Position numbers and translations under genes: made by a program. The notes under the pieces were generated by a model. It saw nothing but the letters and a program-made list of their open reading frames with translations. It was not told the DNA's origin and did no database searches. Of a stretch of DNA of 64,000 nucleotides, positions 21,982-59,723 are shown in pieces (within the stretch, counting starts at the first letter, position 1; the number at the start of each line of letters is the position of its first letter). The DNA is from Bacteroidales bacterium (GTDB lineage Bacteria; Bacteroidota; Bacteroidia; Bacteroidales; UBA3663): the NCBI GenBank assembly GCA_045627865.1, contig JAZQOK010000028.1:33653-97652 (forward strand). The letters are read 5' to 3'.

Positions 21982-24900
21982 ATGAAGAAATTACTATCTT
22001 CTTTAGCTTTGCTGTTTGCTTCAGCGACAATGTTTGCTGGAGTAACAGCGACTTGGAGTTTCCGAAACCCCATTCCAGAAGCCTTGTCCAACCTCAATCT
22101 GCAAGGCAGCGGTGCTACCGCTACATTACCATCCGACGTAGAAGGTATCACATGCAATGTTGATGCCACCAATGGCAAACTTTACTCTGTCGGGCGAAGC
22201 GATTGGGCACAAATGAACGCCGGCACCAAAATCCAAGTTCCTGTCATTTCCAACAAGGATGTAGTTGAAGTACTGACCTATAGTGCAGGCAAAGCCTCTA
22301 TCGGCGGAGTTGCCATGACAGAAGCCACAGGCTCCTACAAAGCAACCAAAAGTGATGTCACCAATGGCTATGTAGTAATCGAAAGTACTGGCAATGACTA
22401 CATTGGCTACATCAAAGTAACCCAGAACGAGCCAGACAATGATATTGTCAAAACTCCTTTCTCTATCGATCTCACTCAGTCTACCTTTACCCTTCCTGAA
22501 GGAGTAACCCAAGGTTCTTACCCTCAGAATGGAGCAGCCTACAAGGATAGCCAGCATGGCTGGCAGTGGTTTGTAGCAGTATTCAAGGTCGATGGTCCTG
22601 TTGCTATCAGCGTAGGCGGATGCAATTGGGGCGGCAACGCATATCTCGAAGCCGATGGTGTCAAGATTGCTGACATCGACACAAAATCAGCTGGATGCGG
22701 CAAGGAAGCCGTTTGCTACTATTCTGGCGAGGGAGCCACTCTCTCTGTCTATTGTGGAGCATATTGTCCAACTCTCAAAGTTGAAGATTACGAGCCAGTT
22801 TCCGAAGTAGTCATCACCTATTACGATGCCGACAAGACAACCGTTCTGAAGAAAGACACCGTCAATGGTGGTTCTGAACTCAAATATGCAGTTACCGCTG
22901 ATCAGGTAACCGTCGGCGAAGGCCAGAAATTCCGCCGTTGGACCGATGCAAAAGGCCTCAACGTTGCTGAAAAGATCATCGTTAACGACAATCTTGATAT
23001 CTTCGCACTCGTTACCGACATCGAGAAGAACGAGGACAACACCACCTACGATTACGATCTGACCTCTACATCATGGTATCAGGAGGATCATGAAATGATC
23101 GAAATCGACGGCAAATACCACAATGACCATGGTTGGATTCTTTCTGGTACCAAGACCATCAAGGTTCAGGTAGCTGGAAATACCAAGGTGACTATCAAGA
23201 ACTGTTATTATTCAGGAGATGCCACGGCAACCGTAGTAACTGCCACCGGCAAGGAGATCACCACCTTTGCTACCAAAGCAGAAAGCGACGGTTTACCTAC
23301 TGTCATCGACTACAATGGCGAACCTACCACCTTAACCATCACTTATCCAGCTGGTGGCTACATCCATGGTGTAAATATCGCCAATGCCGAAAGAATCGCC
23401 AGCGACAATCCGGATATGGTTATTAAAGAGAAACGCCTCTATAAGACAAATTTCCAGGATTGGGACGCTTTATCAGCCAGCGCCAAAGAGACCGTTATCA
23501 AACAGACTACTACCGATGGTCAGGAATTGAATTTCACGCTCTATAATACGGCTTGCGATCCTAAGGGCACCAATACCAAGTTTACGGCAGAAGTCTGCAC
23601 CGATGGTTATCTTCAGACCAACAAGAGCACAGATAATGTTGCATACATTACCACCTCTCCGCTGAAGAATATCTCCAAGTTCGAAGTTGTTCAGGCTGCC
23701 ACAGGTGGCACTCGCGGATTGACCGTCTATGTCAAGGGTGAGGGCGATGCCGATTGGGTTGAACTTCACAACAAGTCGATTGTAAATGCGGCTGGCGAAA
23801 CCTTGAGTTTCACCGTCGATCGCAAGAACTGCCAGATCAAGTTCGGCACCTTCGCACCTGCACAGAATGCCTATATCCTTTCGCTCAACATCTATGGCAA
23901 TGTCGAGGTTCCTGCACGCAAATTCGTTCCTTTCAAGATCGACTTCCGTACTCAGCCTTACACCGTTGTTACTCCTGAAGATGGCAAATTGCCTGCAGGC
24001 ATCGTCGTTGATACCGTCAAATACAAGGATACTCAGCATGGCTACATGAACACCAAGATTGTTGTGCCTGTCGATGGAGCCGTTAAGTTCACTATTGGCG
24101 GCTGCGGCTACACAAATCATAACGCAAAGGTTACCACCAAGGCTGGCGTTGTAACTGAAATTGATACCAAGAGCCCTGGTTGCGACAATGGTTTTGGCAC
24201 CTACGAACATCCTGCAACTTATATTTATAATAGCGAAGAGGCAGATACCCTGACCTTCGAATTAGGCGACTACTGTCCTTGGTTCTCTGCTGTAGATTGC
24301 GAATTTATTCCAGAGGCAACCGTCTCTTACTTCAACACCGACGGAAAGCTTATCGGTGAGGAGGTAGTTCCAGGTAACAGCAAGTTGGCATTCAAATACA
24401 ATGCCAGCAATGTTACCGTAGCTAATGGCAAGGCATTCCGTGGTTGGTTTGACGGCAAGACCAGCAAGGCCAAGAAGGTAAACGAAGGCATGGCTGTCGT
24501 CGAAGACATCAAGCTCTATGCCGTAGCTACCGACATCGAAGTTGCCACCCTTGGCTCTATCTTCAAATACGAGCTCAACAAGGTGAACTTCTACCCTGAG
24601 GATCACGAGATCTTCACCACAACTGGTGCTTTCCATGATACTCAGCATGGTTTTGAATTCGGAGCTAACGGCATCGTCACAATCCAGACAGCTGGCAATG
24701 CCCTGATCAATCTTGGCCTCTGCCAGTATGGAAACGAAAGTTCGGTAGTTGTAACTGATGCTGCTGGCAACACAGTTGATGAAACCATTGCATTGCCTTT
24801 GAGTCAATGTGGTCAACGCAGCATCTCTTACACTGGTGAGCCTACCACTTTGACCATCACCTTCACCAATGGTGGTTATCTGAGCAACCTGACCATCTAC

Positions 24901-26088
24901 AACGTCAAGGAGGTTCCTACCAAGAGCGATAATGGCTACTACGAACTTGCAGCTGGCGATGGTGCAAGCCTCTTGCTTGTACTCGCTACCATCAAAGAGG
25001 GTGACCGCATCTATCTTCCTAACGGAACCTACGACTTAGGCGATGCTGTTCTGACAACCATCTCTGTCAACAACGTCTCAATTATTGGTGAGAGCATGAT
25101 GGGTACTATCATCAAGAACGCACCTTTGGCAGAGAACGAGGGCATCGGAACCACAGCAACCCTCCTCAACACCTCAACCAATCTCTACATGCAGGATCTC
25201 ACCCTCCAGAATGCGATGGTATTCAACGGTGGCACCGGTCGTGCTGTATGTCTGCAGGACAAGGGCAAGAACACAATCTGCAAGAATGTCCGACTCCTCT
25301 CCTTCCAGGATACCTACTACAGCAATGCTGCAAGCAACTTCTACTGGGAAGATTGTGAGATTCACGGTGTAGTCGACTACGTCTGCGGCGACGGTGACGT
25401 TGTATATAATCGTACCAAGTTCGTCAACGAGCAGATCAAGAACACCACAATCGCAGCTCCTTACACTTCCGAAAGTTGTAAGTGGGGTTACGTTATGCTC
25501 GACTGCGAGATCGAGACCCTTTGTAATGAATTCAACTTCGGCCGTTCATGGGGTGGTGTATCAAAACTCCAGTACATCCGTTGCAAAGACCTCAGCAACA
25601 AGCTTGTTGCGTCACGTTGGACAATTGATGGCATGAATGTTGCTGCAGGCAAGTTCATGGAATACGGCAATATGGACAAGGACGGTAAGATTACTACACC
25701 TACCAGCAACATCGTGAACTTCACCCACTCAAGTGGCAACAAGAAGTACGAAACCGTTCTTACTGCCGAGGAGGCTGCTCAGTACACCGTTGCTAACATC
25801 TATGGTGCATGGGGTCCAGATGCAATCTGCGCACAGGAAACCGATGTAACCAAGGGCACCCTCTTCCTCGTTGAGGGCAAGATTACTACCACTCTTCCTT
25901 CTGAGGGTACCGTACGTATTGCCAATGGTCGTGGTGGCTTCGGTCCTGCTGTCAATGCAAATAGCAGCAACATCAAAAGCATCGAGACCAAGGCTGTCAA
26001 CAATGCTCGTGCCTACGACCTCTCTGGTCGTCAGACCTCTCCCAAGGGTCTCTTCATCCAGAATGGTAAGGTAATCATGATGAAGTAA
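21982..26088 (+). CDS. Large secreted multidomain pectin methylesterase (CE8) with duplicated N-terminal modules and a T9SS-type C-terminus
   Basis: Signal peptide; CE8 motifs RAVCL, QDTYY, GVVDYVCG, FGRSW; tail AYDLSGRQ...GLFIQNGKVIMMK. Confidence 0.85.
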   Translation: MKKLLSSLALLFASATMFAGVTATWSFRNPIPEALSNLNLQGSGATATLPSDVEGITCNVDATNGKLYSVGRSDWAQMNAGTKIQVPVISNKDVVEVLTYSAGKASIGGVAMTEATGSYKATKSDVTNGYVVIESTGNDYIGYIKVTQNEPDNDIVKTPFSIDLTQSTFTLPEGVTQGSYPQNGAAYKDSQHGWQWFVAVFKVDGPVAISVGGCNWGGNAYLEADGVKIADIDTKSAGCGKEAVCYYSGEGATLSVYCGAYCPTLKVEDYEPVSEVVITYYDADKTTVLKKDTVNGGSELKYAVTADQVTVGEGQKFRRWTDAKGLNVAEKIIVNDNLDIFALVTDIEKNEDNTTYDYDLTSTSWYQEDHEMIEIDGKYHNDHGWILSGTKTIKVQVAGNTKVTIKNCYYSGDATATVVTATGKEITTFATKAESDGLPTVIDYNGEPTTLTITYPAGGYIHGVNIANAERIASDNPDMVIKEKRLYKTNFQDWDALSASAKETVIKQTTTDGQELNFTLYNTACDPKGTNTKFTAEVCTDGYLQTNKSTDNVAYITTSPLKNISKFEVVQAATGGTRGLTVYVKGEGDADWVELHNKSIVNAAGETLSFTVDRKNCQIKFGTFAPAQNAYILSLNIYGNVEVPARKFVPFKIDFRTQPYTVVTPEDGKLPAGIVVDTVKYKDTQHGYMNTKIVVPVDGAVKFTIGGCGYTNHNAKVTTKAGVVTEIDTKSPGCDNGFGTYEHPATYIYNSEEADTLTFELGDYCPWFSAVDCEFIPEATVSYFNTDGKLIGEEVVPGNSKLAFKYNASNVTVANGKAFRGWFDGKTSKAKKVNEGMAVVEDIKLYAVATDIEVATLGSIFKYELNKVNFYPEDHEIFTTTGAFHDTQHGFEFGANGIVTIQTAGNALINLGLCQYGNESSVVVTDAAGNTVDETIALPLSQCGQRSISYTGEPTTLTITFTNGGYLSNLTIYNVKEVPTKSDNGYYELAAGDGASLLLVLATIKEGDRIYLPNGTYDLGDAVLTTISVNNVSIIGESMMGTIIKNAPLAENEGIGTTATLLNTSTNLYMQDLTLQNAMVFNGGTGRAVCLQDKGKNTICKNVRLLSFQDTYYSNAASNFYWEDCEIHGVVDYVCGDGDVVYNRTKFVNEQIKNTTIAAPYTSESCKWGYVMLDCEIETLCNEFNFGRSWGGVSKLQYIRCKDLSNKLVASRWTIDGMNVAAGKFMEYGNMDKDGKITTPTSNIVNFTHSSGNKKYETVLTAEEAAQYTVANIYGAWGPDAICAQETDVTKGTLFLVEGKITTTLPSEGTVRIANGRGGFGPAVNANSSNIKSIETKAVNNARAYDLSGRQTSPKGLFIQNGKVIMMK

Positions 26089-26271: not shown

Positions 26272-26607
26272 TCAATAGAAGTCACACGGTTCGTAAGGAA
26301 ATGTCCCACGGCTTGTGAACTTGAGGATAATCAGTTTTCGACCATCTGGGGCATAGACATATTCGATGGTACAAGCACCTATGGAAACTGACTTTAAATG
26401 ACCAAATAGGTCGCATGTGTAGTACTGTTGCTTGCCTGCATCAAAAAGAAACAGATTCTGTTCGAATCCACCAGCAGACTTGATCTTCGTAGTCCACCCA
26501 TGTAGATTGTCGTAGGCATACGACATATCTGCCGCAGTACCGCTGCGGTTATTGCCAATGATGTGGCCAAAATCATCGTATGTCAGGCATTGTATGGTAT
26601 CGGTCAT
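26272..26607 (-). pseudogene. Rhs core remnant
   Basis: MTDTIQCLTYDDFGHIIGNNRSGTAADMSYAYDNLHGW...FEQNL is nearly identical to 33268-33423; it is fused to IEYVYAPDGRKL from a later part of the core. Confidence 0.85.
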
Positions 26608-26620
26608 ATATAAGTTGCTA

Positions 26621-27193
26621 TTACCAGTGCCCCTTCCGGAGAAGGGTACAATTACCAAGAGTGTCAATCATGTATTCGAATATGTAAGGATCCTGTGTCA
26701 AGTCAATCATACAGTCGGGAATGAATTTTGGATTTTCTGGATGATTTTTCAGTGCCCAGTCTCTTATTAACACATTTGTTATTGGAGATTTTTTCATTTT
26801 ACCTTGAAATTGTGAGGCAAACGTAGATTCATAGATATAACAATAGACGTTATTTCGTTTGAAATATCCAATATAATGGTTAACATTAAAGCCTTTTTTA
26901 TCATGAAAAATAAAAGGTTCTTCGTATTTCCCCATTACCCAAACCTTATCAGTATCATTCATGGAGAAAAAATCGAATGTTACATAATAGGCCGTTGTGT
27001 CAAATTCTGGATTTCTATTTAAGTCGCTTCTGTGTTTGCAGTCAGATATCATAACCTCCAAGATGCAATCCAAATAAGGATGTTTACATATTCGATCATC
27101 GGAATATGTAGTCTCTCTATTTATGCAACTTCCATTGAAAACAATACTAATGAGTGCTGCTACAAAATATAATAGATTTAAAAATGTTTTCAT
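26621..27193 (-). CDS. Putative lipoprotein immunity protein for the JAB-like orphan toxin
   Basis: Lipobox-like NGSC at residue 23; immediately downstream of the toxin tip; AT-rich. Confidence 0.65.
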   Translation of the reverse strand: MKTFLNLLYFVAALISIVFNGSCINRETTYSDDRICKHPYLDCILEVMISDCKHRSDLNRNPEFDTTAYYVTFDFFSMNDTDKVWVMGKYEEPFIFHDKKGFNVNHYIGYFKRNNVYCYIYESTFASQFQGKMKKSPITNVLIRDWALKNHPENPKFIPDCMIDLTQDPYIFEYMIDTLGNCTLLRKGHW

Positions 27194-27203
27194 AAAGAGT
27201 TAT

Positions 27204-27779
27204 TTATCTACCAACAACTTCTTTCCTCCACTCATCAAAACTGTTCCATTCACGAATACTCTCGTTATTTTCGTCATATTCATAGACGTGATCAGTTCCT
27301 TGATGGCTAACAAAGAATCGAGTTTGGCCGTTTGTATTTTTTGCACTATTTTTATCACCAGGACTACCACCACGTGTTCCTTCGCTAGTAGATCCATCTT
27401 TAGCATTCTTTCCAGGATGGTTGTGAATACGAATGGTAACATCATTCTCATTAATTCCAGAATTAGATCTTGCTTCCTTGGTATTCACATTCCCGTCTTT
27501 CCCATTTGTCACAAGTAGTGCTTGTCCGTCATTTGTTATGACTGTTGACCACTCTTGACTTGCATTTTCAGTCATAACTTTTTGAAAATCTAGGGCTTGT
27601 TCTACTGATGTAAGTGCATAACCATTGTCGATAATGCTATTAAGAATGGCATCATGACTGTTTTCTGACGCAGATATTTCTACAAACTTATTTGCAAAGC
27701 CGATATAGGTTCCGAGACTTGATGCTGACTTCGTAATCTTACCCCATTTTGCCAACCTTAATCCTTGAATCAAAAGCAA
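27204..27779 (-). pseudogene. Orphan toxin C-terminus, JAB/MPN-like metalloenzyme
   Basis: E(W)...IHNHP...SPGD pattern of JAB domains; no convincing start; located in the Rhs orphan trail. Confidence 0.65.
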
Positions 27780-28285: not shown

Positions 28286-28972
28286 TTAGAATGATTTTCT
28301 AAGGATTACAGAATCTGGCATATTCTTATAGCTTCTATCTTTGAGAATGTCTATTTGGAAATAGTACAATGAATCGGAATACTTCTGAAACAATGGAGAT
28401 TCTTCGAAAAACAAGGAATCATCAACATTATAACCCACATATCCATATTTTTCCCATGAAGCGATAAGCCATTCTTTTTTGTAGTGTTTCAAATGATAAT
28501 TTTCAACAGCATTCATAGCACTTCTATAGTTATCACTATTAACTGTTAATCTATTTCCAAAAAAAGTTATACTGTGACTGTTTTGGATGGTATCTCTGTA
28601 TCCAATGGCAGATTCACATGAATAATGTAATAATCGGTATATTTCGGGTGTTCTATCAATAATAGATCCTTTATCGCCCACTCCGTAAAAAACAATCATG
28701 AATGTTCGATCTTTGCTGTATAGAATTGTATCCACTAATACAAAAAAACGGTCTGATAGCGAAACATTCGGATACTCTTCTATTAACCATTTTTTCGATT
28801 GAATCATTTCTAAATATTGCTTAACAAATCTAGCCTTATCTGCATTATATAGAACACTATCGATAGGTCCACAACCATTATCTTTCCAAATTGGATCATG
28901 TTCATCGCCTTCAGACGAGCATGATGTAACAAGGAGCATGGTAATCAATAAAAACAAGATACTTTTCTTCAT
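28286..28972 (-). CDS. Putative lipoprotein immunity protein for the orphan lipase toxin
   Basis: MKKSILFLLITMLLVTSC lipobox; ATGA overlap with the toxin stop. Confidence 0.75.
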   Translation of the reverse strand: MKKSILFLLITMLLVTSCSSEGDEHDPIWKDNGCGPIDSVLYNADKARFVKQYLEMIQSKKWLIEEYPNVSLSDRFFVLVDTILYSKDRTFMIVFYGVGDKGSIIDRTPEIYRLLHYSCESAIGYRDTIQNSHSITFFGNRLTVNSDNYRSAMNAVENYHLKHYKKEWLIASWEKYGYVGYNVDDSLFFEESPLFQKYSDSLYYFQIDILKDRSYKNMPDSVILRKSF

Positions 28973-30079
28973 TTTCTTAACAATTTATTAATTTCTGGAC
29001 CAAATGTACTAACTGAATGTGGTTTGATCGGACATGTGGTGGTATTCCAATACTTATTAATTTCTGGTTTTAGTATACCAGGAATCATTTCTCCAGTTGC
29101 AATTGGATCATTGGTATGCGATGCTTGGAATGTCGGAACACCTTCTACTGCCTTTTGTTCTGTAGGCTGAAATGGAGCCAGATCTAATTCAAATTCTATC
29201 TTATGCTCAATTCCATTTTCTTTAGCATAATCAACAAGACTTTGAACAAATCCTTTTCCATAGGCTCCTCCCATACTATGTGTAGTAACTTTAATGGTTT
29301 CATCTTCACCTAACGCACCATAGATGGATTCAGCCATTTGTTCACCAACAGAATAGCCATTCGATTGTCTTACTTCTGCCCAATAATTATTGTGATCTTT
29401 ACCTTGGTCATCTAATCCAACCAATAATGTATTTAGCCATCCTCCAGATGCTCCATCCAAATAGATGGCTTTGTTATCATTGGTAAGTTGCATTACTTGT
29501 TTGTCTATTCCGTCCCAATAAGAAGACGAACCACCACTAAACAAGTGTTGACCATTAATGAAGATATTAAGTCTTCCATCTGGATCAATCTTGTTCACCG
29601 GATCGCCAGTACAATAGTTGTATGGTGTGAGCCATGTGAAATCCTCCGCCAATGGGTCTGGTCTATCGAACACAGGCAGAGCAGGATTGAACAGACGGGC
29701 TTGGAAATCATAGAGGTCGAGACCGTAGGTTCTATCAAGCTCTTTATTACTATACTTATACTTCTGTGCTTCTTGATTTGAAGACAAATTACCGATGATG
29801 CCGCCGTATGGATAGTAGTGGGTAATTTGTTCGATACTATCTTTGTCGGCATTCACCACCATTCTATTATTCCCCTGATAATCCTGCACGTAGTAATGGC
29901 ATATTGGTTTCTTGTCACCATCGAAAGAATAATAGCCACCTGAGAAGAGATACATTTGAGGCTTGCCATTCTTGAGGATAAGGTTTCCTGCATAGTCTGT
30001 GGAGTTAGAAATGTTATAGACTTGCTTTTTCTCCCGATGAATAGTCCGCAGTCTTCGACCATCGGCAGAATAGATGTGT
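28969..30079 (-). pseudogene. Orphan Rhs core end plus alpha/beta-hydrolase (lipase-like) toxin tip
   Basis: Frame is open from HIYSADGRRL; Rhs end PDPLAE...NPVNKIDPDG; tip carries THSMGG, then Asp and His candidates (NDP, PHS). Confidence 0.85.
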
Positions 30080-30081
30080 CA

Positions 30082-30432
30082 TTATTTTCCAAGGATAGAG
30101 GCTATCATTTCATCTGAAAGTCCTTGCGCTTTCATTTTATCAGATAGTTCTCGTATTGTTTCTGCACGTCCCTCTGCACGCTCGTTGAGCATGACGGCAC
30201 GATTGGTACGGTAAGTATCAAGACTGATGTTGTAGCGTTCCAGTTCCTCTGGTGTCATATTGATCAGATCGAGAATGTTTCCGACCTTATTGAAGACCGG
30301 TTGCTGTGTCTGGAATGGGATAGATGTATTCATTGCGTCGATATTTACTAAGTTGTACAACCAGTAGTCAATCTTTGCCTTACACTCCGACTGAGGCTTG
30401 TTCTTATAGCTTGGAAGCTCCAGAGTATATGC
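30082..30432 (-). pseudogene. C-terminal fragment of an Rpn/PD-(D/E)XK nuclease-family putative transposase
   Basis: LELPSY..K..SEC...IDYWLYNL...MTPEELERYNISL...ERAEGRAE...MKAQGLSDEMIASI; N-terminus missing. Confidence 0.7.
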
Positions 30433-30436
30433 TTAC

Positions 30437-30797
30437 CTATTTTCTTCGTATAAACGAATTTGTAATAATGACAATAATCGATAATATCTCTGGAGCAAAA
30501 AATGATGTACAAAATAATAATCGAATATTACAACTCATATCTACAAAAAAATCAATTGAGTATAGACCTATTAAGAATAATAAATCATATACAAAAATAA
30601 AACAAATGTATTTTATAGAAGACACTTTGAGTCGCTATAATTAGCTTGAATGGAGTTTCAAGAATCGCGTTTATTCCTAAAATATACAATGTAACTATAT
30701 ACCAAGTCCAATCTCCATGATAAGGATAAAAATATGCTATTATGAAGAATAGCATAAAACTTAATATAGGGGAAGCAATGGAAAGTATCTTAGACAT
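30437..30797 (-). pseudogene. Frameshifted paralog of the membrane immunity gene
   Basis: Two overlapping hydrophobic ORFs (30585-30797, 30437-30625) that together match the size and SP(I/L)xS...LE..(F/A)K(L/I)I pattern of 30959-31339. Confidence 0.65.
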
Positions 30798-30805
30798 TCT
30801 TAATA

Positions 30806-30952
30806 TTAAAATTTAGAAACACGATGATTAAATGCAGAAAAAAATATTCCCAATAGATTGGGCATAGTAAAACAACTATTAGCTGGTCTATAATTGGTAT
30901 TCCCATACGTATTCACGTTGGGATTAGCCATTGTAGATGCACTTACAATCTC
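30806..30952 (-). pseudogene. Orphan 48-codon variant of the lipase toxin's extreme C-terminus
   Basis: EIVSASTMANPNVNTYGNTNYRP-ANSCFTMPNLLGIFFSAF-NHRVSKF* versus main EIVSTSTMANPNVNTYGNTSYRP-YVYSHNSWKALRQSSN-NHSISNF*. Confidence 0.8.
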
Positions 30953-30958: not shown

Positions 30959-31339
30959 TTATAATTTATGTTTCTGAAAGCTTAACGCTATAGTCAGCAA
31001 ATCTACCAATAACGATGGCATTGCGCTTATGCACATAACTTTACCTTCTGTATTATCCAATGGAATTGGCTTAAAGTCAGTGACCAGCCAAATATAATAT
31101 ATCCATGAAATAACAATTATAGCTACTATAATTATATTCTTATTAGTCAACTTTGAAGCTATTATTTTCGCTATTGATTCTAAAACAATAAACGGAATAT
31201 TAGTAATCAACGCTGTCACAAATGGAGTTATCTCATGATGAACAAATGGCTCCATACGACAAAATACAAAGAAAAATATCAAAGCGAGCAAAATCAATGA
31301 TATCAATGGAGATACGAGATAAAATACTGTTTTGTTCAT
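30959..31339 (-). CDS. Putative membrane immunity protein for the Rhs lipase toxin
   Basis: 126 aa, ~4 TM segments, TAATG overlap with the toxin stop. Confidence 0.7.
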   Translation of the reverse strand: MNKTVFYLVSPLISLILLALIFFFVFCRMEPFVHHEITPFVTALITNIPFIVLESIAKIIASKLTNKNIIIVAIIVISWIYYIWLVTDFKPIPLDNTEGKVMCISAMPSLLVDLLTIALSFQKHKL

Positions 31340-34300
31340 TAGAAGTTGCTTATGGAATGATTATTTGATGATTGACGTAGTGCTTTCCAAGAATTATGGC
31401 TATAAACATATGGCCTATAACTGGTATTCCCATACGTATTCACGTTGGGGTTAGCCATAGTAGAAGTACTTACAATTTCGCCAGATATGACATAATTTTG
31501 AATCTGCGAAGTATTAGAACCTACCAATCCCATCTCTGTCATAGTGTTATTATGAATACCAGCTGGATTAAATGTAATTGCGGCTGCGTCTGTCATCATA
31601 GAGGCGACTTGAGCCAAAGCACCGCCTAAAGAATGTCCAGCAAAGGACAATTCCTCTCCTGGGGCTAACGATGCCATTTGGGACAATGCGAGTAATGCTG
31701 CCTGTCCATATTGCGTATCCCATATTTCATTCCCCATTCCTTTATATTGGGCAAGATCTAATTGTGCGTCGGTGCCATCATTAGTTCCTGCAAATACAAT
31801 GCAAGTTTCAATGTTTTCTCCACCATTGCTTCTTTGATAAACACCATATTGAAGGCCTGTTTTATCATCAGATGCCAATCGAGTACAATTCCAACCTCCA
31901 GATAGTTCGCCCTCACCATCATACACATGTTTTGCCATTTGTGCTGCTTCAACAGAATCAGGTAACAAGCCAGTTGGATCAATCCACATGATAGGATTAC
32001 CTAAACAATATGCGTATGGACTTACTTCTGGATGTTCCTCTGCCAAAGGGTCTGGTCTATCGAACACAGGCAGAGCAGGAATGAACTGACGGGCTTGGAA
32101 ATCATAAAGGTCGAGACCGTATGTTCTATCTAGCTCTTTTCCGCTATACTTATACTTCTGTGCTTCTTGATTTGAAGACAAATTACCGATGATGCCGCCG
32201 TATGGATAGTAGTGGGTAATTTGTTCGACACTATCTTTGTCGGCATTCACCACCATACGGTTATTGCCCTGATAGTCGGCAATATAGTAATGACACTCGG
32301 GCTTCTTGTCTCCATCGAAAGAGTAGTATCCTCCAGCAAACTGATACATACTTGGCTTGCCATTCTTGAGGATAAGGTTACCGACATAGTCGGTGGAGTC
32401 ACCAATTTGACGGTACGGATTACCACGTTGAAGGAGACTGCTATAAGATGAATTAGGCAAAAGACGATAGTGTTTGGTTCTCAGTCTTCGGCCATCGGCA
32501 GCATAGACATATTCGATAAAATAGTTGTTTGCCAAAGTGATCTTCTTCGGGTTACCCAGCAGGTCGTACTCAATGTTCTGGATTCCTTTGTTTAGATCCA
32601 TGGTCAACGCTCCATTACCATTGTAGGCGTACTCTTGGTCCTTATCGTCGCCATCGACAAAATCGAAGGCACCTTCGTAATCCAAAGACTCATCTACTGC
32701 ATCAGAAACAGAAGAGATCTGGTTGCCGTTATGCTCGATGCTGAGGTCATCGATTAAGCCGAACTTCTTGTCGTTCTTCATACCATAGCGCTGCAGGGAT
32801 GTGATATTGGTGTTGGCATCGTAAGCGATGGCTTCGGTGTAGTTGCCATTTATCTTGCTGAATTTAAAGATACCTGTAGCCGTTCCCGGTTTGGATTGTC
32901 CGATGATTCCGCTTGTTGATACAGAAGAGCGGCTGCTTGAAGACATGGCAGGTTCCTCTTCCTGTGCAGTCATGAGGGTAGCATCCGAAAGACTTTCTTC
33001 CGATTCTGGAATGAGTGCCTGCAGTTTTGCAGAAGTAACAATACTGGTTCTTTCATATTGCTGATTTGCAATCAAGTCTATAGGAGTTTCCTTAAAGTCA
33101 ACAATCTGCTTAACAGGAATAAGCTTTGACGTGTAATCTGCTAAAGTCAAGCGGTTCAGGTCATCATACTCGTAGTCATAGCGATTAATACTTCTTTCAT
33201 CTGTTTGCCAAGTCATAGCAGAAATACTACCATCCCAACGTGGATGCTTGCCTTTTGTTTCTCGGTACAGATTCTGTTCGAATCCTCCCTTTGACTTGAT
33301 CTGCGTAGTCCATCCATGCAGATTATCGTAGGCATACGACATATCTGCCGCAGTACCGCTGCGGTTATTGCCAATGATGTGGCCGAAGTCATCGTATGTC
33401 AGGCATTGGAGGGTATCGGTCATGGTGTAGCCAGAATAGTCATCCCATACAGTTATTAACGAAGAAGTCAATAGTTTAGTATGCGGAGCATCGTAATTAT
33501 TTGTTAATGTTGCTTCGAAGATATTGTTGTATGTTCCATATTCTTCTTCATACTCGAAAATTTCGGAAGTTTCCAACGTCACATCTCCGATAAAATTATA
33601 GGAGTAATCGGTTATGGTAAGCTGCTTATTGAGTCCGATTTCACCCTTACGGCATACTCTGCCATAATCATCATAGGCAAAGGTCGTAAGGAGTTCTTCC
33701 CCATTGCTTGCTCGTTGTTTCGTGCCAAGCAGATAACTGTGCTTGTATTTACTGCGTAGCAAATAATAGACAGGGCCTCTATATGTCATTGCATCATAGG
33801 CATCAAGGAATGAATCCTCATCGTAGTAATTGACTATTTCGTCGTATTCTACCTTGTCACCATTGGAGATACATTGTTTCGTCAACCTCCCAAGTCCATC
33901 ATATTCATAGGTGCGGAATTTTCCAGCATCACGCAATATGCCATCCTGCATCTTGATTATGCGATCTGCTCTGTCATACCAATATTCAATAGGCTCACAG
34001 CCTGGCAGCTTCTTGGTTTTGACTCTGCCTCGATTGTCGTAGGTGTATTGGAAGGCATACTTCGCAAGGTTTGGATCTTCCTGATACTTTGGCTGAAGTA
34101 CATAGACCAGTTGACTCAGTTCATTATAAACATAGTAGGTATCATTCTTCTTTCTTTCAGATAGTCTGCGTTCAAGAATGATCCGTCCCATAAAGTCTTT
34201 GAAGATTTGTATAGTGACTCCATCTTCGTCCGATGTTTGAATGTTATATAGAGTACAATACTTGTAATACTCTTTTCCCGTCATATTGGACAGAGTGTAC

Positions 34301-34767
34301 TTCTTTACCTCATTAGGTTGGTTGCTTAAATAGTTGAATCTTTTCCCCTTTGTATTCCAAGCTTCGCCTGGAGTTGAGACAAGAATCTGTCGGTCCAACC
34401 CATCATAAGTAATTTGAGAGAATCCTTGATTATCTCCGTAGATACTTTGACTGGCACTTGCGATTGTAGACGGCATGATATAATCAGGAGTCGCACCGCC
34501 AGTTATTGGTGCCCAGATTTTGGACTCTCTCCCAGCACCATCATAATGGGTGTATGAGAGTAGATATTTACCTGAGGTGTTGACGCCACCAACGACCGAC
34601 TCATTTGGTCGGCCTAATCCATCATAATATTGCACAGAAACAATAGAATCTGTCTGGGTTCCGTTCAAATAGGAGATTGTTTTGACATAGTTATAATCGT
34701 TGTTTTGTGCTATGATAGATGTACTTGTTGTGGCGACCAACAATATTATTGAAAGATATCTTTTCAT
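31339..34767 (-). CDS. Rhs/YD-repeat polymorphic toxin (DUF6443-type N-terminus) with lipase C-terminal tip
   Basis: Signal peptide; QYYDGLGRP; YD repeats; YKYSGKELD...PDPLAE...NPIMWIDPTG; tip FAGTN...GHSLGG...TFNPAG. Confidence 0.92.
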   Translation of the reverse strand: MKRYLSIILLVATTSTSIIAQNNDYNYVKTISYLNGTQTDSIVSVQYYDGLGRPNESVVGGVNTSGKYLLSYTHYDGAGRESKIWAPITGGATPDYIMPSTIASASQSIYGDNQGFSQITYDGLDRQILVSTPGEAWNTKGKRFNYLSNQPNEVKKYTLSNMTGKEYYKYCTLYNIQTSDEDGVTIQIFKDFMGRIILERRLSERKKNDTYYVYNELSQLVYVLQPKYQEDPNLAKYAFQYTYDNRGRVKTKKLPGCEPIEYWYDRADRIIKMQDGILRDAGKFRTYEYDGLGRLTKQCISNGDKVEYDEIVNYYDEDSFLDAYDAMTYRGPVYYLLRSKYKHSYLLGTKQRASNGEELLTTFAYDDYGRVCRKGEIGLNKQLTITDYSYNFIGDVTLETSEIFEYEEEYGTYNNIFEATLTNNYDAPHTKLLTSSLITVWDDYSGYTMTDTLQCLTYDDFGHIIGNNRSGTAADMSYAYDNLHGWTTQIKSKGGFEQNLYRETKGKHPRWDGSISAMTWQTDERSINRYDYEYDDLNRLTLADYTSKLIPVKQIVDFKETPIDLIANQQYERTSIVTSAKLQALIPESEESLSDATLMTAQEEEPAMSSSSRSSVSTSGIIGQSKPGTATGIFKFSKINGNYTEAIAYDANTNITSLQRYGMKNDKKFGLIDDLSIEHNGNQISSVSDAVDESLDYEGAFDFVDGDDKDQEYAYNGNGALTMDLNKGIQNIEYDLLGNPKKITLANNYFIEYVYAADGRRLRTKHYRLLPNSSYSSLLQRGNPYRQIGDSTDYVGNLILKNGKPSMYQFAGGYYSFDGDKKPECHYYIADYQGNNRMVVNADKDSVEQITHYYPYGGIIGNLSSNQEAQKYKYSGKELDRTYGLDLYDFQARQFIPALPVFDRPDPLAEEHPEVSPYAYCLGNPIMWIDPTGLLPDSVEAAQMAKHVYDGEGELSGGWNCTRLASDDKTGLQYGVYQRSNGGENIETCIVFAGTNDGTDAQLDLAQYKGMGNEIWDTQYGQAALLALSQMASLAPGEELSFAGHSLGGALAQVASMMTDAAAITFNPAGIHNNTMTEMGLVGSNTSQIQNYVISGEIVSTSTMANPNVNTYGNTSYRPYVYSHNSWKALRQSSNNHSISNF

Positions 34768-34787
34768 TTCTTTTATTGTTGTTTACG

Positions 34788-37700
34788 TTACTTATTATTG
34801 TGATATTGGTATGAGGATATGACTTTACCTTTTGTATCCCAGACCGACATTAATCGACCGAATCCGTCATAGTCAAATTTCGTTGTCGTACCATTAGGCA
34901 TTGTTTGCGAAGTCATTCCCACTAATGGTTTGTAGGTGTAGGTCGTTACTAATCCACCAGCATCAGAAAGACTGCTTCTAATAGTATTGTAGTTTTCTAC
35001 TGACGGTTCTGATTTCGATTGCAATACAGAAATAAAAGAAGATGTAAGAATGCCTTCTACTATTGAGTAAGTTAAACCCTCAATCTTGGCAATAGGATAA
35101 TTCCCTTGATAAGACCAAAGATATACTATATTGTTTGTACTGTCTTTGACGATAGACTTTACATTTCCGTTGTCAAAGTATCCATATCGTACTCGTTCTC
35201 GCATGTTATAAGATCCAACGGACTCAGATGTAGACGACAGCCTATAGTTTCCATAATTCAGTTGATATTGATTCCTTGTGGTTATTATCTTTGTTTTTAC
35301 CCCATTGAAGATTGCAGACTCTGTTTTTTGAACAACGGCATTTGCTATATGATGTTTGTTCATCATATCTTGGCTTGTGCTGCTGCTATCGGTTGAAGTG
35401 TATATATAATCTGTATTATGGAAGGTGTTAGTCCCAAGTACAGTGTTTTCGATGGTCTTGAGTTGATGATTGATTGCGTCGTAAGAGTAAGATGTAGAGT
35501 CTCGTGATGACAAATACATTTTGCCATCATCATCATTGACGTATTCATTTACAACACGCGTTTTGAGTCGATTTTGAAACCTATGGAATGAATAGACAGA
35601 AATGCGATTGCGGCCATAATCATAATTCAAGTTATTAGGAAAAATCGGCTCTATTATATAATTCATCTTGTATGACTCGTAATTTGGAACATTATACTCA
35701 TAATTTTCTTCACGTATAATATTGTTATAGTCATCAATGTATTCCTTTTTTATAAGATTACCATTATCTTTCCTTATAATGCTAGATTTATAGCCATCAT
35801 CTATGTTACATCCAATAGTGTCGTTTTGAAAATATGATATCTCTTTTTTTCTTTGCCCATCGATTGTTGTGATGAATTTTTCAACACGCGAATAGCCGAC
35901 ATCGTTTGGAGACACAATTGAGGCAAAAGATGTCAGTCTTTGTGCACTGCTGCCTAGTCGCAAAATTCCATATATTGATGCCCAATTAGGGTCTTCTACT
36001 ACAAAGTAGGTATATGAATCAAAACCTAAAGGATTTATGAGCTTTCCGCTAGAAGTGCCATCAGAATTTGTATATTTATACTCTGTGCTCTCCAGTTTAG
36101 TCCCATTTTTGTCATAACTATTAATCGCTTTGATACGTAAACCTGCACCTTTGGCAGTCTCATAGCCCGACTTAATTGTTACAGGATTGGAATTTTCTAG
36201 TTTGCCAGAGACATAGCCATTTTCTTTTCCTTTAGAAGATATTGAAGTTACAAGCATATACGTACCTTTGGGTAAATCTACATCGATTGACTTAGTATAG
36301 TTATTAGTGGTATATACATTCACATTATCATTTCCACTGAGCCCAATTTTATATTGTTTAGGATTTTTGTAGGATTCCTGACCTATCCGGTATAGCTCAA
36401 CATACAAAGAAGTGCCAGGTTCTAACGATGCAAGGTTACCAGAATTTGCCTGAAAAACTGCGGTCAATTTGCCCGTAAAATCTTTCTGAAAAGTGATTTC
36501 TTGATGATTGGCATCAATTGACACAGATGAAACAAACCAGGCAAATGATTCAACATTGTTACTTCCTGCAGTTCCTGCAGCAAGGTTATTCAAAAAATAT
36601 TTCCTATAAGAGTTCGGTTCGTATTGGAAGATAGTATATCCTTTTGTTGGGTATGTTATTTGCGTAAGAATAAATGCATCCATCGTTTTTTCATTAGGCA
36701 AGCGATTTCCTCCATCATTCGAATATCTTTTTACGATAACAGGATTGATGTCGCAATATTGAAGAGAGGGAATCATCGTGTTTTTATAAACGGTCGTGTT
36801 TCGATTTTTGTTTTCTTGACCATTATAATATCCCCACATATCTATTGCGCAAGAAGTTTTAAGCGGAAAGTCTTTACTCTCATTGTATCCAAACGAATAG
36901 ACTTGATCTTCTTCTCCTTTGGCAGCAAAAGAAACTGATTTCAACTTAAGACGTTTCGAAAGGACTGACTTTAACGTCTTATCATCAAGATATCTGAATC
37001 TTCCTTCAAGATAATCACCACCAGTATTCGTATTTGAAACAAAATAGCCATAATCAAATTTTATGAATTTGATTATGTCATTTGTCAATTTTGATTTAGC
37101 TATAATCGAATTTAGCTTTCTACCCTTATGAAGGTCCTCTCTTTCACTCGTTATGAATGATACAGTCTGTTCTTTTGTTTCTATTGAAGACAAATATGGC
37201 TTCTCCGTATAATGATTATCATGTGAAAAATATTCATTTTTATGGTCATAGAATTGTGCGGCAATATCTGTTGAGGCTATCATCTCCAACTCAATTTCTT
37301 CCTTTTCTGATCTCCTTGGTCCCAACCACATACGCGAAGGGGATTCGTATTTGAATTCCATTAAATTTCCCTGAGGACTGATAATTTTGCTTATGTACCA
37401 GACTGAATTATACATTTCACTATTTCGAAAACTGGATTTTTCAACAACATCAAAGTAATAGATATATCCGTTTCCGTCTGCAACTGTCCATGCGCTAATT
37501 TTATTAGTTACTGGAAATCCAGAGTTGTTTATTTCACTTTCAATCGTAAAATATCCGTTTTCAGGACCGATAATTATTGCTTTTTTAGTTTCAGGATCTA
37601 GGAAGAAAAGAAGACTCGCGTTGGGAAGAGCAACAGAATAAAAGTCTAATTCTGTTAATCCGTTATTTCTGTCACTGACAACTCCTCTCAGATATCGGTT

Positions 37701-38123
37701 AGTTGTATAAAAATAGTCACTTTGGCTCTTTATTGAGTCAAGTATTTCGCTATAATTACTTCTGCTATTGACCTCTGTCCAATCAAACCCACCATTAGGA
37801 ATCAAAGATACACAGCCGCCAACATTAAAATCCCAATTAAGACCTACCCATGAAGCCTCACTGTTGACCTTAACACCTCGTGAATCATAATTGATAACCA
37901 ATGGTAGCTCTATATCTTTATACTGGAGTTTATACAATGGAACATTGATGTTTGCTGTGCCTGTGTATTCTCCAACATTGAAACGACCCTGTCGTTCGAA
38001 ACTAGTTGCTTCTGGGGACTTTTGTATTAAATAATCGTATTTTATATTATTTTCTGCAATCAGTTCGTCATTGTAGGAACTCAATGATAAAACAATAACT
38101 ACCAGTATAATACTTTTTTTCAT
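34788..38123 (-). CDS. Large secreted YD-repeat partner of the Rhs toxin (shell-forming, TcB-analogous)
   Basis: Signal peptide; SPEATSF...YTGTANINVPLY...ASWVGLNW, DMWGYYNG, GAGLRIK, TTYTYKPLVG...YDGFGRL; no toxin tip. Confidence 0.8.
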   Translation of the reverse strand: MKKSIILVVIVLSLSSYNDELIAENNIKYDYLIQKSPEATSFERQGRFNVGEYTGTANINVPLYKLQYKDIELPLVINYDSRGVKVNSEASWVGLNWDFNVGGCVSLIPNGGFDWTEVNSRSNYSEILDSIKSQSDYFYTTNRYLRGVVSDRNNGLTELDFYSVALPNASLLFFLDPETKKAIIIGPENGYFTIESEINNSGFPVTNKISAWTVADGNGYIYYFDVVEKSSFRNSEMYNSVWYISKIISPQGNLMEFKYESPSRMWLGPRRSEKEEIELEMIASTDIAAQFYDHKNEYFSHDNHYTEKPYLSSIETKEQTVSFITSEREDLHKGRKLNSIIAKSKLTNDIIKFIKFDYGYFVSNTNTGGDYLEGRFRYLDDKTLKSVLSKRLKLKSVSFAAKGEEDQVYSFGYNESKDFPLKTSCAIDMWGYYNGQENKNRNTTVYKNTMIPSLQYCDINPVIVKRYSNDGGNRLPNEKTMDAFILTQITYPTKGYTIFQYEPNSYRKYFLNNLAAGTAGSNNVESFAWFVSSVSIDANHQEITFQKDFTGKLTAVFQANSGNLASLEPGTSLYVELYRIGQESYKNPKQYKIGLSGNDNVNVYTTNNYTKSIDVDLPKGTYMLVTSISSKGKENGYVSGKLENSNPVTIKSGYETAKGAGLRIKAINSYDKNGTKLESTEYKYTNSDGTSSGKLINPLGFDSYTYFVVEDPNWASIYGILRLGSSAQRLTSFASIVSPNDVGYSRVEKFITTIDGQRKKEISYFQNDTIGCNIDDGYKSSIIRKDNGNLIKKEYIDDYNNIIREENYEYNVPNYESYKMNYIIEPIFPNNLNYDYGRNRISVYSFHRFQNRLKTRVVNEYVNDDDGKMYLSSRDSTSYSYDAINHQLKTIENTVLGTNTFHNTDYIYTSTDSSSTSQDMMNKHHIANAVVQKTESAIFNGVKTKIITTRNQYQLNYGNYRLSSTSESVGSYNMRERVRYGYFDNGNVKSIVKDSTNNIVYLWSYQGNYPIAKIEGLTYSIVEGILTSSFISVLQSKSEPSVENYNTIRSSLSDAGGLVTTYTYKPLVGMTSQTMPNGTTTKFDYDGFGRLMSVWDTKGKVISSYQYHNNK

Positions 38124-38144
38124 ACCTGAATATTCATGTGGGGG

Positions 38145-39209
38145 TTACTCATATACTTTTATTGTTATCTCTTGCTCTCTACACTTGATGTTCAACATAA
38201 GTGTGTTTCCGATAGGACGGCGTGACAAAGTTAGGCTTTCTTGCCATTCTCCTGCCTCTTGATTGTTATGGTGGGCGTGACCGAGAATGTTACCGAGTAT
38301 GTCGCAGGCACAGAAGTCGATGCTGCCTTCTCCATCGAGAGTATAGCAGATGTCCAGTCGTGTTCCGTCGGCAGAAAGACCTGCATTGATTGAAGCCAAA
38401 GCAGATTTTGTGGATGCTTGAGCTGCAGCATTAGCAGCATCGGCAATCGTTACTTGATTCAAGATGGAGTCATTGACTGCATCTTCGGCCAATTCCATCT
38501 GCATGACTGGCAGGAAGAGATAGGTCACGCTGTCAAAGGGCATAGTGGCTGAGTCTTCGGCCACGGTTGCCCATCTTATTGATTCCATGATGGGATAGCG
38601 ATAGCCGGCACAATACCAGCTGTAACGGTCGCATTGGATCTGGAATTCAATGGTGTCGCCAGCAAAATAAGTGTCAGTATAGTCGTCAAAGAAATGAATC
38701 CTCGTGATGTGTGGAATAGTGTCTTCTCCATCAGTCAGCATACCCATGCCATCGGCCACAGAATATCCCCAACCAGAACGTGAGGTTTTGATGTTCTCCT
38801 CTCTGCCTTGCCCCAAGAAAGAACCGGAGAGGCTGTCCCCGTACTGAAAAGGGTAACGGAGCATGGGCCTTTCCTGACTGTAGAGACAAAAGGCACGACG
38901 GCTCTGCTCTCCTTTGTCAACGAGCGTGTCGCCATGCACCAAATAATGTTGGATCCGTCCTCGTTCAAAGATGGCAATGGTGTCTCTGGCCGACGCAATG
39001 GTCTGCAGGAAATCCTGACTCTCTTTTGTCATCCGACCTAAAGGCCAGACTTCATTCGGTCCACCATCACCAGGAGCAACGTAATCCACTTGTACTTTAC
39101 ACAGTTTATCACCAGTTCTAAAGCTGTTTGCCTCGGAACTGATCGGTATCTGTGCAGTCATAGTATGCCAACAGCAAACCATGACAACAGTTGATAAAAA
39201 CAATTTCAT
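38145..39209 (-). CDS. Secreted protein with a T9SS CTD-like C-terminus, first gene of the Rhs module
   Basis: Signal peptide; YPFQYGD, WYCAGYRYP; tail CDILGN...TLMLNIKC...TIKV resembles a degenerate type A sorting domain. Confidence 0.65.
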   Translation of the reverse strand: MKLFLSTVVMVCCWHTMTAQIPISSEANSFRTGDKLCKVQVDYVAPGDGGPNEVWPLGRMTKESQDFLQTIASARDTIAIFERGRIQHYLVHGDTLVDKGEQSRRAFCLYSQERPMLRYPFQYGDSLSGSFLGQGREENIKTSRSGWGYSVADGMGMLTDGEDTIPHITRIHFFDDYTDTYFAGDTIEFQIQCDRYSWYCAGYRYPIMESIRWATVAEDSATMPFDSVTYLFLPVMQMELAEDAVNDSILNQVTIADAANAAAQASTKSALASINAGLSADGTRLDICYTLDGEGSIDFCACDILGNILGHAHHNNQEAGEWQESLTLSRRPIGNTLMLNIKCREQEITIKVYE

Positions 39210-39535
39210 TAGTAATATCCCAAAATAATGTTTATTTATATATATTTGTTTTTAGTTATAAGTTGCTATTGCGATCAAAAAGATACAGAATCTTTATCGA
39301 GTCTCAACAACAAGTAGCAAGTATGAATGGCTATCTTTCTGGCATATAGACAGATTTTCTTAACCATAATCAATTGCAAATGTATTTCTTCGTTTGGAAA
39401 GTATAACGGAACTCATAAAAAAATAAAATAAAAAGATATAAATTAGCAAAAATAATACACAAAAACGCACTTCCGCTTTGCAAAAATAAATCGAATAATG
39501 GTAACTGCATCAATAAACAAAGCAATTATTTAAAA

Positions 39536-39758
39536 AGGAAAAGAGAGGTTCTCACGAATCCCTCTTTTCCTTGAAAAAACATTTACTAAACATTCTTGAT
39601 TCATAATCCGAAGATTATTGAACTCTATTACCTAAAATCACATTTATAAAATAAACACTCTTACATTACATTTGGGTTCTAAAACACATTTGGGCATATA
39701 AAACTTAATACACACTTGATATATAATTGCGGACTATATATTGTCTTTTTTGTTTTGC
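39536..39758 (-). ncRNA. Candidate small RNA 1 (~220 nt)
   Basis: Promoter TTTG(39794-39791)-N20-TATCTTTG(39770-39763), no substantial ORF, terminator 39536-39572; 3' part paralogous to candidate 2. Confidence 0.6.
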
Positions 39759-40062
39759 ACTGCAAAGATAGGGCGAATTACTGAGCCCTCCAAATATTTT
39801 CACAAAAAAATGCAATTTTGTGTGCAATTTTATATAATTTGTTGCATTTTTATGTTGCGCAACATATTTTTTGGTAGTTAAAGGACAAAAATTCTCAAAA
39901 AAAGTAACGAATCAAGTCCAAAACAAGAAATTTGGTGCTTTCCGAAAGTCGGTCAGCAACAAATTGCAAGTTTAAATCAGATCTGTTGGATCAGCTTCTT
40001 CAATCTCAAGAAGAGTTCTCTAACTCTATTGAAAATGGAAATCAAAGATAACAAATAGAGGG

Positions 40063-40208
40063 GGAAAACGAGAAAGAGGGGTTCTCACGAATCCCTCTTT
40101 CTTAATGAAAAAACATTACTAACAAAAACATTCGGTTTTAACCTAATCTTATTCGATTATTTCTACCTTTATTCATCGCTACTTTCGCGATGATATTTCA
40201 CATTTTCC
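40063..40208 (-). ncRNA. Candidate small RNA 2 (~140 nt)
   Basis: Promoter TTTG(40244-40241)-N20-TATCTTTG(40220-40213), 5' hairpin ATCGC..GCGAT, terminator 40070-40102 with the same TTCGTGAGAA core as candidate 1. Confidence 0.6.
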
Positions 40209-48226: not shown

Positions 48227-48227
48227 T

Positions 48228-51289: not shown

Positions 51290-51366
51290 TACAATATTTA
51301 AACCTCCCAGTTCTAATTCTGTCAAATAAACAAAAAGCCCAAATAAACAAAATCACTTAATCTAAT

Positions 51367-51573
51367 ATGCTTAAAGTTCTATTTGCACGTCATCGTGCCG
51401 CCTATTTCAAATTGGCTCTTAAATACTGGGTCATGCCTGGTCATGTGTACAAGCTTGCACATGGTGGTCGAGCACATGGTGGAAAAGATTCCAAGATCTG
51501 CCACGAGTTGCTTGAGATGAGAATTGTACACCGTCACCATTATTCCCAGGATCCGAACCATTATGAGATGTAA
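51367..51573 (+). CDS. Small basic, His-rich hypothetical protein (68 aa)
   Basis: ATG after an A-rich leader (CTTAATCTAAT); fills the gap and overlaps the GH97 start by 11 nt. Confidence 0.55.
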   Translation: MLKVLFARHRAAYFKLALKYWVMPGHVYKLAHGGRAHGGKDSKICHELLEMRIVHRHHYSQDPNHYEM

Positions 51574-59064: not shown

Positions 59065-59093
59065 ATAGAATATTAATTAATAAACAGAATGAT

Positions 59094-59699: not shown

Positions 59700-59723
59700 A
59701 TAATATTATTAAGTTGTTTTCGC

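Follow-up and report, generated by a model that had tools for sequence, protein, structure and literature searches.

Gram-negative Rhs toxins have mostly been studied as type VI secretion system (T6SS) cargo, and Tc shells as cargo of TcA. The Tc BC cocoon (TcdB2-TccC3, YenB-YenC2; PDB 6h6e, 4igl and 5kis) is a two-protein shell, with an SpvB-like start to its front half and a back half that bears the Rhs core and a variable, cleaved tip. Here we analyse a locus that shares these traits (shell and cleavage being in this case predicted) within a 64,000-nucleotide stretch from a Bacteroidales bacterium (contig JAZQOK010000028.1, positions 33,653 to 97,652; hereafter the window). It comprises three genes, which we call A, B and C. 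The module belongs to the Rhs/YD polymorphic toxins and works like the Tc BC cocoon, the modelled fold of B, natural fusions and gene adjacency giving strong support to the view that B and C each supply one half, front or back, of a single predicted Rhs/YD cocoon. It is a widespread, apparently undescribed variant of the Rhs polymorphic toxins, and type IX secretion (the T9SS) is one of its several likely exits.

The genes A (39209-38145, 354 residues), B (38123-34788, 1111 residues) and C (34767-31339, 1142 residues) form one run, as an earlier note on this DNA had described, and are separated by gaps of 21 and 20 bases. All three are on the minus strand, as are their parts, the putative promoter, the tip and immunity genes and the tip and YD-repeat remnants located below. 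The traits of an Rhs/YD toxin are all present: YD repeats, an Rhs core, DPxG with conserved aspartates, a variable tip, a predicted immunity gene and an orphan array. A basic start followed by a hydrophobic core, judged by our own charge and hydrophobicity rule and not by SignalP, opens each of A, B and C, which agrees with the signal peptides of the earlier note. Among homologues, 82 of 117 for A, 85 of 114 for B and 91 of 112 for C satisfy this rule (sequences below a length cut-off or lacking an initial methionine are left out of the count), versus 1 of 240 internal-methionine controls.

Gene C (31339..34767), read from Pfam and NCBIfam domains and from its homologues, encodes the putative C-terminal half of the cocoon. 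It opens with DUF6443 (residues 29-143; 34339..34683), a domain that comes after the end of B in fused relatives, and continues with YD repeats, an Rhs-associated core (residues 853-934; 31966..32211; TIGR03696, E = 7e-17), a DPTG motif at 930-933 and a 209-residue toxin tip (31339..31968). The core residues R893, D906 and D930, together with G933, are invariant in 40 C sequences; we take the spacing of the first three to be that of the Tc/Rhs aspartyl autoprotease, in which they are presumably catalytic. By analogy, this predicted autoprotease would cut at DPTG and the tip would be enclosed in the shell. The tip is class 3 lipase-like. It has a GHSLG motif at residue 1044, matches Lipase_3 (E = 2.5e-4) and the structure of a T6SS lipase effector (PDB 7ubz, E = 3e-7), and the serine, acid and histidine of its predicted triad (S1046, E1097, H1137) are kept at aligned positions in four related tips. 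The lipase tip and the DPTG motif had both been read correctly before, as had the tipless YD nature of B. Overlapping the stop of C, the gene of a 126-residue membrane protein (30959..31339) encodes, to judge by position and hydrophobicity, the putative immunity protein that would neutralise the tip; it matches no family. The tips of the family are diverse, with 62 of them falling into 41 clusters, and JAB, REase-7 and peptidase families occur among C homologues.

By sequence, B (34788..38123) has a single RHS/YD repeat match, located at its end, and neither an Rhs core nor DPxG (Pfam and NCBIfam). Its model (pLDDT 85.8, pTM 0.83) provides the principal clue to its identity. The top Foldseek ranks are TcdB2 and YenB, with a query-normalised TM-score of 0.37-0.41 versus 0.11-0.15 for T6SS Rhs proteins. 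In VIA comparisons 617 residues of B superpose on YenB at 3.8 Å (B 48-1111, YenB 28-1267), and B 56-403 matches the SpvB N-terminal domain (6p0x) with a Z of 12.2. The SpvB likeness is at fold level only, since Pfam SpvB gives no match to the B sequence; in profile comparisons B gives weak matches to YenB (E = 0.02) and to SpvB (E = 0.65). One comparison weighs against this assignment: the VIA Z is higher for T6SS Rhs (16.2 over 382 residues) than for TcB (12-13 over 617). Because the T6SS Rhs proteins obtain their higher Z over fewer residues, the label "TcB-like" for B is a matter of extent. With this proviso, model, fold searches and the fusions described below point to B as a tipless, TcB-like N-terminal cocoon half with an SpvB-like N-terminal fold.

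The gene order of B relatives argues in the same direction. Matching stretches number at least 499, and we inspected the best 80, nearly all from Bacteroidota (loci are referred to by L numbers). Seventeen were too short to tell, leaving 63 informative loci: C lies just downstream of B in 50 and upstream in five, four are single B-C open reading frames (ORFs), and four have no C. In two of the fusions (L024 and L077) the last strand of B runs through about five residues into the mature start of C, whose signal peptide has been replaced, and two further fusions (L120 and L125) are found within the window's own genus. A FastTree phylogeny built from 97 N-terminal regions of B includes 12 fused forms, which require 7 state changes (shuffles: mean 11.5, minimum 9), thus indicating fusion or fission several times over; the tree is midpoint-rooted and does not fix the direction. 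The earlier proposal of a split shell in the manner of TcB and TcC is therefore strongly supported by the TcB-like model of B, by the seamless fusions and by the adjacency of B and C in 55 of the 63 loci plus the four fusions. YenB extends 220 residues beyond the end of B, while C before its cut site is 160-220 residues longer than YenC2, so the same shell is probably divided here sooner along its length, and DUF6443 would lie at the seam.

We considered whether B and C might act separately, C as a complete Rhs toxin and B as an adhesin or decoy shell. The signal peptide that each possesses and the four informative B loci with no C nearby would fit such a scheme. It is nevertheless very improbable given the seamless fusions in several lineages, the covariation of B with the first 300 residues of C (below) and the fact that B spans just the front part of a TcB.

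Several relatives vary at or near the seam. One (L127:2179-12232) is divided elsewhere, with a 1731-residue B that includes DUF6443 followed by a 1600-residue protein that has fn3 domains and resembles Rhs proteins. Extensions of up to about 2,000 residues composed of Ig-like, PKD or BACON domains occur at C starts (L010, L020, L033, L060, L066 and L076) and, similarly, at B ends (L008, L028, L051, L054 and L081); they are possibly adhesive stalks. Small related proteins, weakly lipocalin-like, are encoded between B and C in Flavobacteriaceae and Marinoscillum (L011:11431-11865, L033:11144-11623, L039:11476-11943 and L068:11488-11949), and other small protein families occupy this place in Chitinophagales.

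The locus departs from the Tc BC pair in several respects. Both halves here have signal-peptide-like starts, the split likely falls some 200 residues earlier (B ends at residue 1267 of the 1487 of YenB), DUF6443 opens the second half, B carries a jelly-roll insert, and immunity genes follow the tip. Furthermore, the TcA-docking beta-propeller is likely absent from B: no propeller family was found in B or in 120 homologues, none appeared among the fold matches, and, leaving the insert aside, B falls about 300 residues short of the YenB span that it matches. TcA (PF18276) had no match in five genomes, in a search run without a positive control. A second relevant group is the TcdB/TcaC export class, which has a signal peptide, an SpvB-like start, RHS repeats, variable tips and members in Bacteroidetes, as does our module (Zhang 2012, PMC3482391). 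That class is defined by Pfam SpvB and an integrin-like beta-propeller on the toxin, neither of which is detected in B by sequence, and a two-gene split with partner genes is not described in the sections of the paper available to us (PMC3482391). On present tests the module qualifies neither as a Tc toxin nor as a member of the TcdB/TcaC class. The bacterial teneurin-like proteins likewise enclose a variable toxin in a Sec-signalled YD shell and come with immunity genes and with modules for surface display, but are single chains with an FN-plug and an NHL propeller, and the six phyla listed in the accessible text do not include Bacteroidota (PMC13018210). The profile of C matches them over the shell end only, with no NHL match.

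Likeness to T6SS Rhs proteins (RhsA, Tse5, RhsP, Tse15; PDB 7q97, 8cp6 and 8qjb) extends to the YD shell, the core with DPxG, variable tips, an immunity gene and an orphan array, besides the resemblance of the tip to the effector 7ubz. In contrast, the shell here is larger and spread over two Sec-type proteins. No PAAR, VgrG or Hcp family is found among the 47 window proteins scanned, in line with the earlier note, and Phage_base_V, TssD, TssC and DUF4280 went undetected in the genome, whose assembly is 87% complete; the TssD, TssC and DUF4280 models do match in other Bacteroidota genomes. TssD is present in 5 of 39 B-carrying genomes of the phylum sample described below, the other 34 lacking it. 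Together, the signal-peptide-like starts, the lack of PAAR and VgrG and the lack of T6SS markers in this 87% complete genome rule out a T6SS-delivered Rhs.

Clues on how the module evolves come from a second complete A-B-C locus in the same genome, on contig C31 (L001:3403-11296), which differs in its B, ends in a hydrolase-like tip and is followed by an orphan array of its own; locus remnants lie on three further contigs. The earlier note had mentioned neither this copy nor the immunity gene and orphan array of the window. Identity between the C31 copy and the window is 84% in A and, within B, 50% in the front, 26% in the insert and 42% in the back; within C it is 43-55% over residues 22-312 and 80-93% over the remaining shell. 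A locus from the same genus gives a parallel picture: 86% in A, 31%, 19% and 26% in the front, insert and back of B, 53-63% at the start of C, and 77-82% in the remaining C shell. Judged from these identities, B and the start of C together constitute a fast-changing, swapped cassette, and the tips vary separately. On this pattern B would set the target and C the payload. Since A follows the back half of C in identity, and not B, that half is the candidate contact of A in its predicted binding to the shell. A complex prediction of A (21-250) with C (170-933) returned scores of 0.00, 0.40 and 0.01 without folded controls and is informative neither way. A serine-rich low-complexity insert at about residues 550-640 of C (32850-33120) is shared with the C31 copy and missing from most homologues.

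The insert of B (residues 522-648; 36180..36560) is a hypervariable jelly-roll, the least conserved stretch of B (18% identity to the paralogue in one comparison, versus 25-67% in the rest of B), absent in L017 and L051 and doubled in L049. Its VIA matches are to binding modules (Z 6-7.4) and, with the identity drop and the gains and losses, make it likely that the modelled jelly-roll recognises the target or binds a receptor. Weighing against this is that matches at Z of about 7 reflect a common fold and carry no indication of function. As with Tc toxins, the target could instead be eukaryotic, whether protozoa, fungi or host cells: the shell is Tc-like, the insert resembles, at low Z, binding modules of several secreted proteins, and a lipase suits any membrane. 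We hold this to be highly unlikely, because a predicted immunity gene after each tip and an orphan array follow the pattern of bacterium-against-bacterium toxins, and the TcA search mentioned above, over five genomes and with no positive control, was negative.

We now turn to A (38145..39209). Its AlphaFold model (pLDDT 92.6) and the family profiles describe a signal-peptide-like start, a curved beta-sheet domain (residues ~28-240), a helix and a C-terminal Ig-like end of the T9SS type A sorting-domain kind. The N-terminal domain has only partial beta-barrel matches (Z up to 10.6, root-mean-square deviation 3.6) and no clear family; DUF6850, considered for it, was rejected, with weak matches in 24 of 101 members and a best E of 0.003. 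A's own sequence has no Pfam or NCBIfam match. The family as a whole is more telling: TIGR04183 matches 39 of 124 members of the wider family, a wide-family profile aligns with 12 sorting domains of unrelated carriers at 97.6% over A 276-354, and in Atlas clusters PF18962 stands at 20-22%. D303, G306 and K351 are invariant in the close family. Thus, the end of A (residues 276-354; 38145..38384, lacking a YPNP motif) is, on family-level profile evidence, a divergent T9SS sorting domain, as the earlier note had suspected. The close family weighs on the other side: it aligns only weakly to the sorting domain (1.1%), and the copy in the window falls below the threshold of every model, so this copy may be degenerate.

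The genome encodes the T9SS markers SprA and GldN, and the earlier note had placed the whole module under T9SS delivery. A wider survey divides this claim. In a sample of 300 genomes from the phylum, where two candidates were scored per genome and the B count is a lower bound, B is found in at least 39, all of which (39/39) have SprA. This says little because SprA occurs in 236 of the 300 (79%), with 63 of the 64 genomes without it belonging to one family, and we dropped the phylum-level co-occurrence as evidence for a T9SS route on account of this background. In a Bacteroides sample (101 genomes, the same set for every gene; kin are not independent in this or any other genome count) we found B in 62, SprA in 25, A in 10 and GspF, of a type II secretion system (T2SS)-like machine, in 4. 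All ten A-carrying genomes have SprA (hypergeometric probability 1.7e-7, on an assumption of independence that does not hold for kin), and in each of them A and B are no more than about 5 kb apart. In contrast, only 20 of the 62 B-positive genomes have SprA and 42 do not, 4 of these having GspF only and 38 neither marker. The T9SS is therefore not the general route of B-C: A depends on the T9SS, and B-C does not. Tying the module to the T9SS is thus supported for A, seen only with SprA, but not for the B-C core, which is common in genomes without it, a distribution that the earlier note itself had named as a refutation. Carriage by the T9SS could apply at most to the version with A, and transport of the shell by A through SprA is a prediction. 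In the window's own family A is present in 12 of 38 other genomes, and 9 of 16 A matches adjoin B, the remainder being fragments or lying at contig ends.

These data bear on a strong form of the earlier proposal, in which riding on the T9SS is the route of the entire family, copies in T9SS-less genomes being relics. Consistent with it are SprA in every B genome of the phylum sample, the absence of B from the one family without SprA (SprA in 0 of 63), and the higher frequency of B in SprA-positive Bacteroides (20 of 25) than in SprA-negative ones (42 of 76; Fisher p = 0.03, uncorrected for kinship). In addition to the SprA background already mentioned, five single-contig SprA-negative Bacteroides genomes, GldN-negative in four cases, have open B genes, with a full-length C adjoining B in the loci fetched. 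The number of B loci reaches about eight in a single genome, the tips vary and arrays lie downstream, which largely refutes the relic view for the core and leaves it improbable overall.

If A is tied to the T9SS, what occupies its place elsewhere? In Chryseobacterium the slot holds a different sorting-domain protein. A T2SS-like cluster (GspE, GspF and pilins, with a secretin where the stretch reached it) stands beside B in Flavobacterium, Flagellimonas, Pedobacter, Mucilaginibacter, Labilibaculum, one Bacteroides and genomes outside Bacteroidia. T2SS-like or type IV pilus clusters flank B-C in separate lineages (L031, L035, L061, L065, L068, L083, L028, L051, L119 and L127-L130), and GspF lies at most 25 kb from B in 12 of the 19 genomes holding both, versus about one expected by hand estimate, 8 of the 12 belonging to one family. 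The Bacteroidota T2SS-like system has been grouped with type IVa pili as a possible new secretion system, according to the part of that study available to us (Denise et al., PMC6668835). GspF was not found in the window's own genome (87% complete). In Chitinophagales, an unnamed family lies directly upstream of B in six loci (L018:6557-7984, L046:6557-7990, L054:6479-7984, L058:3015-4511, L063:6389-7894 and L012:1692-3212), with one distant and one partial case in addition. As read from sequence, these proteins start with a signal peptide, continue with a helical part of about 300 residues and are beta-barrel-like at the C-terminal end; they have no family match and may be outer-membrane anchors with a stalk. 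Because A is one of several lineage-specific partners in this slot, in our reading the outer-membrane step is a module open to exchange, and the T9SS is not its fixed route.

A further neighbour was found in SprA-negative Bacteroides: of 19 loci, 10 have an Amidase_2 gene at most 1 kb upstream of B, intact in 8, as part of an HU/amidase cassette. In one Bacteroides without T9SS (L107:11909-13124), HU-family, Amidase_2 and smalltalk genes are directly upstream of B; the smalltalk peptide (33 residues, between the amidase and B) has a faint match to the SPP1 holin (E = 0.07). A dedicated lysis module was rejected for the present, this being a general cassette of which just 8 of 45 copies precede B.

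In the Jana et al. account of the TANFOR toxins, as far as its accessible parts go, these are Bacteroidota toxins that carry Sec signals but lack a sorting domain themselves, such domains of the T9SS kind being found in their neighbours, as in our locus, and their export through the T9SS is hypothesised (Jana et al. 2020, PMC7073777). They are not described there as Rhs cocoons (PMC7073777). The core studied here also thrives without the T9SS. No TANFOR NCBIfam model matches A, B or C, and this identity was discarded.

Taking this evidence together, the explanation we favour, by a modest degree of belief, is that B and C form a cocoon which, in this genome, A holds or escorts as T9SS-exported cargo. 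Sec would export A, B and C, and B and C would assemble one cocoon after export, inside which the core of C would cut off the lipase tip. A, likely T9SS cargo, would then hold or escort the cocoon to the cell surface, the binding of A to the shell being the least certain step. The jelly-roll insert of B would recognise the target, the lipase tip would attack membrane lipids of a neighbouring bacterium, and the 126-residue membrane protein would protect the producer.

Several observations count against the part assigned to A. No A was found in 10 of the 20 Bacteroides genomes with both SprA and B (19 candidates scored per genome), and of two fused B-C loci that match in two Bacteroides genomes, L136 has A and L135 lacks it; A is thus dispensable. 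The full cocoon may also exceed the width of SprA. Moreover, because 38 of the 62 B-positive Bacteroides genomes have neither SprA nor GspF, some exit needs neither machine and might serve this locus. In an alternative scenario built on this last count, B-C leaves the periplasm by a route common to all carriers, such as outer-membrane vesicles or lysis of some of the cells, while A, inherited alongside as T9SS cargo, serves a subsidiary function and does not export or tether the cocoon. The amidase genes just 5' of B in SprA-negative loci would suit such a route, as would the intervening smalltalk peptide of the one locus inspected, and lysis-mediated release of a Tc toxin has reportedly been seen in one study. 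We nevertheless find it rather unlikely given that A sits beside B in every A-positive Bacteroides genome and in more than half of the matches in the window's family, that the amidase cassette is a general one, and that its genes were not found in the window's genome.

With regard to novelty, no title or opening abstract in the literature searched describes the module, although supplements (Additional File 1 of Zhang 2012, the TANFOR neighbour tables) may list such architectures, and no paper among those searched mentions DUF6443, whose likely role, to judge from this locus, is to form the seam between the two parts of the shell. The B-C family uses neither the T6SS nor TcA and is spread over Bacteroidota, with at least 499 matching stretches. 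We raise, tentatively and as a possibility more doubtful than probable, that the B/DUF6443 pairs constitute a phylum-wide class of two-part cocoons free of TcA and T6SS, in which the tip, the targeting cassette (B with the beginning of C) and a plug-in exit or tether are each swapped independently, the options for the last being a T9SS adaptor, a type IV pilus-derived "T2SS", a barrel-and-stalk anchor and a lysis cassette. If so, gut Bacteroides would have in it a major weapon that has been overlooked, carried by about six in ten sampled genomes, and it would be the first antibacterial cargo tied to both the T9SS and the Bacteroidota T2SS-like machine. The module offers a direct test of the T9SS in bacterial competition, a role hypothesised in the available part of the TANFOR paper (PMC7073777), and B-C is a candidate cargo for the poorly understood T2SS-like system (PMC6668835, accessible sections). 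It also raises the question of how a large periplasmic cocoon crosses the outer membrane in strains without either machine.

The remaining features of the locus are consistent with a polymorphic toxin island. A low-GC stretch at about 26-40 kb holds the whole locus (GC mostly 0.32-0.42 versus ~0.48-0.55 in most flanks). Upstream of A, a promoter-like site (39753..39777) contains TAnnTTTG, which we take to be the Bacteroidota -7 promoter consensus; it is one of three similar 25-mers of the island (repeat family D5) and its role is predicted. A scan for sigma-70 promoters and terminators gave a signal at chance level only. In the 1.1-kb gap upstream of A there are two copies of a terminator-like 36-nucleotide GC-stem inverted repeat (39524-39583 and 40065-40100).

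Downstream of the immunity gene, repeat D4 and the ORFs point to a remnant of an alternative tip and immunity pair (30585..30952), in which a duplicated lipase-tip end (30884-30952, 90% identical) is followed by a 70-residue hydrophobic ORF. Beyond it lies the orphan array. An orphan Rhs core with a hydrolase-like tip and a THSMGG motif (28969..29955; TIGR03696, E = 7e-15; repeat D1, 88% over 300 nucleotides) has 51% identity to the end of the C31 paralogue, and a lipoprotein-like predicted immunity protein follows it (28286..28972; from its position and sequence start). Next come an orphan Tox-JAB1 tip (27204..27779; PF15659, E = 9e-5) and, with a signal-peptide-like start, its putative immunity protein (26621..27193); Tox-JAB-1 is paired with the lipoprotein Imm65 in the accessible part of an earlier survey (Zhang 2012, PMC3482391). 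A YD-repeat remnant (26272..26667; repeat D2) ends the array, within which a 92-residue fragment has a weak match to the Rpn transposase family (30082-30360). Elsewhere in the window, pectin-degrading genes are found at 21982-26088 and 48207-53524, and a run of thioredoxin-like, DUF6029, Omp28 and InlB-repeat genes, unrelated to the toxin locus, occupies 56749-62662.

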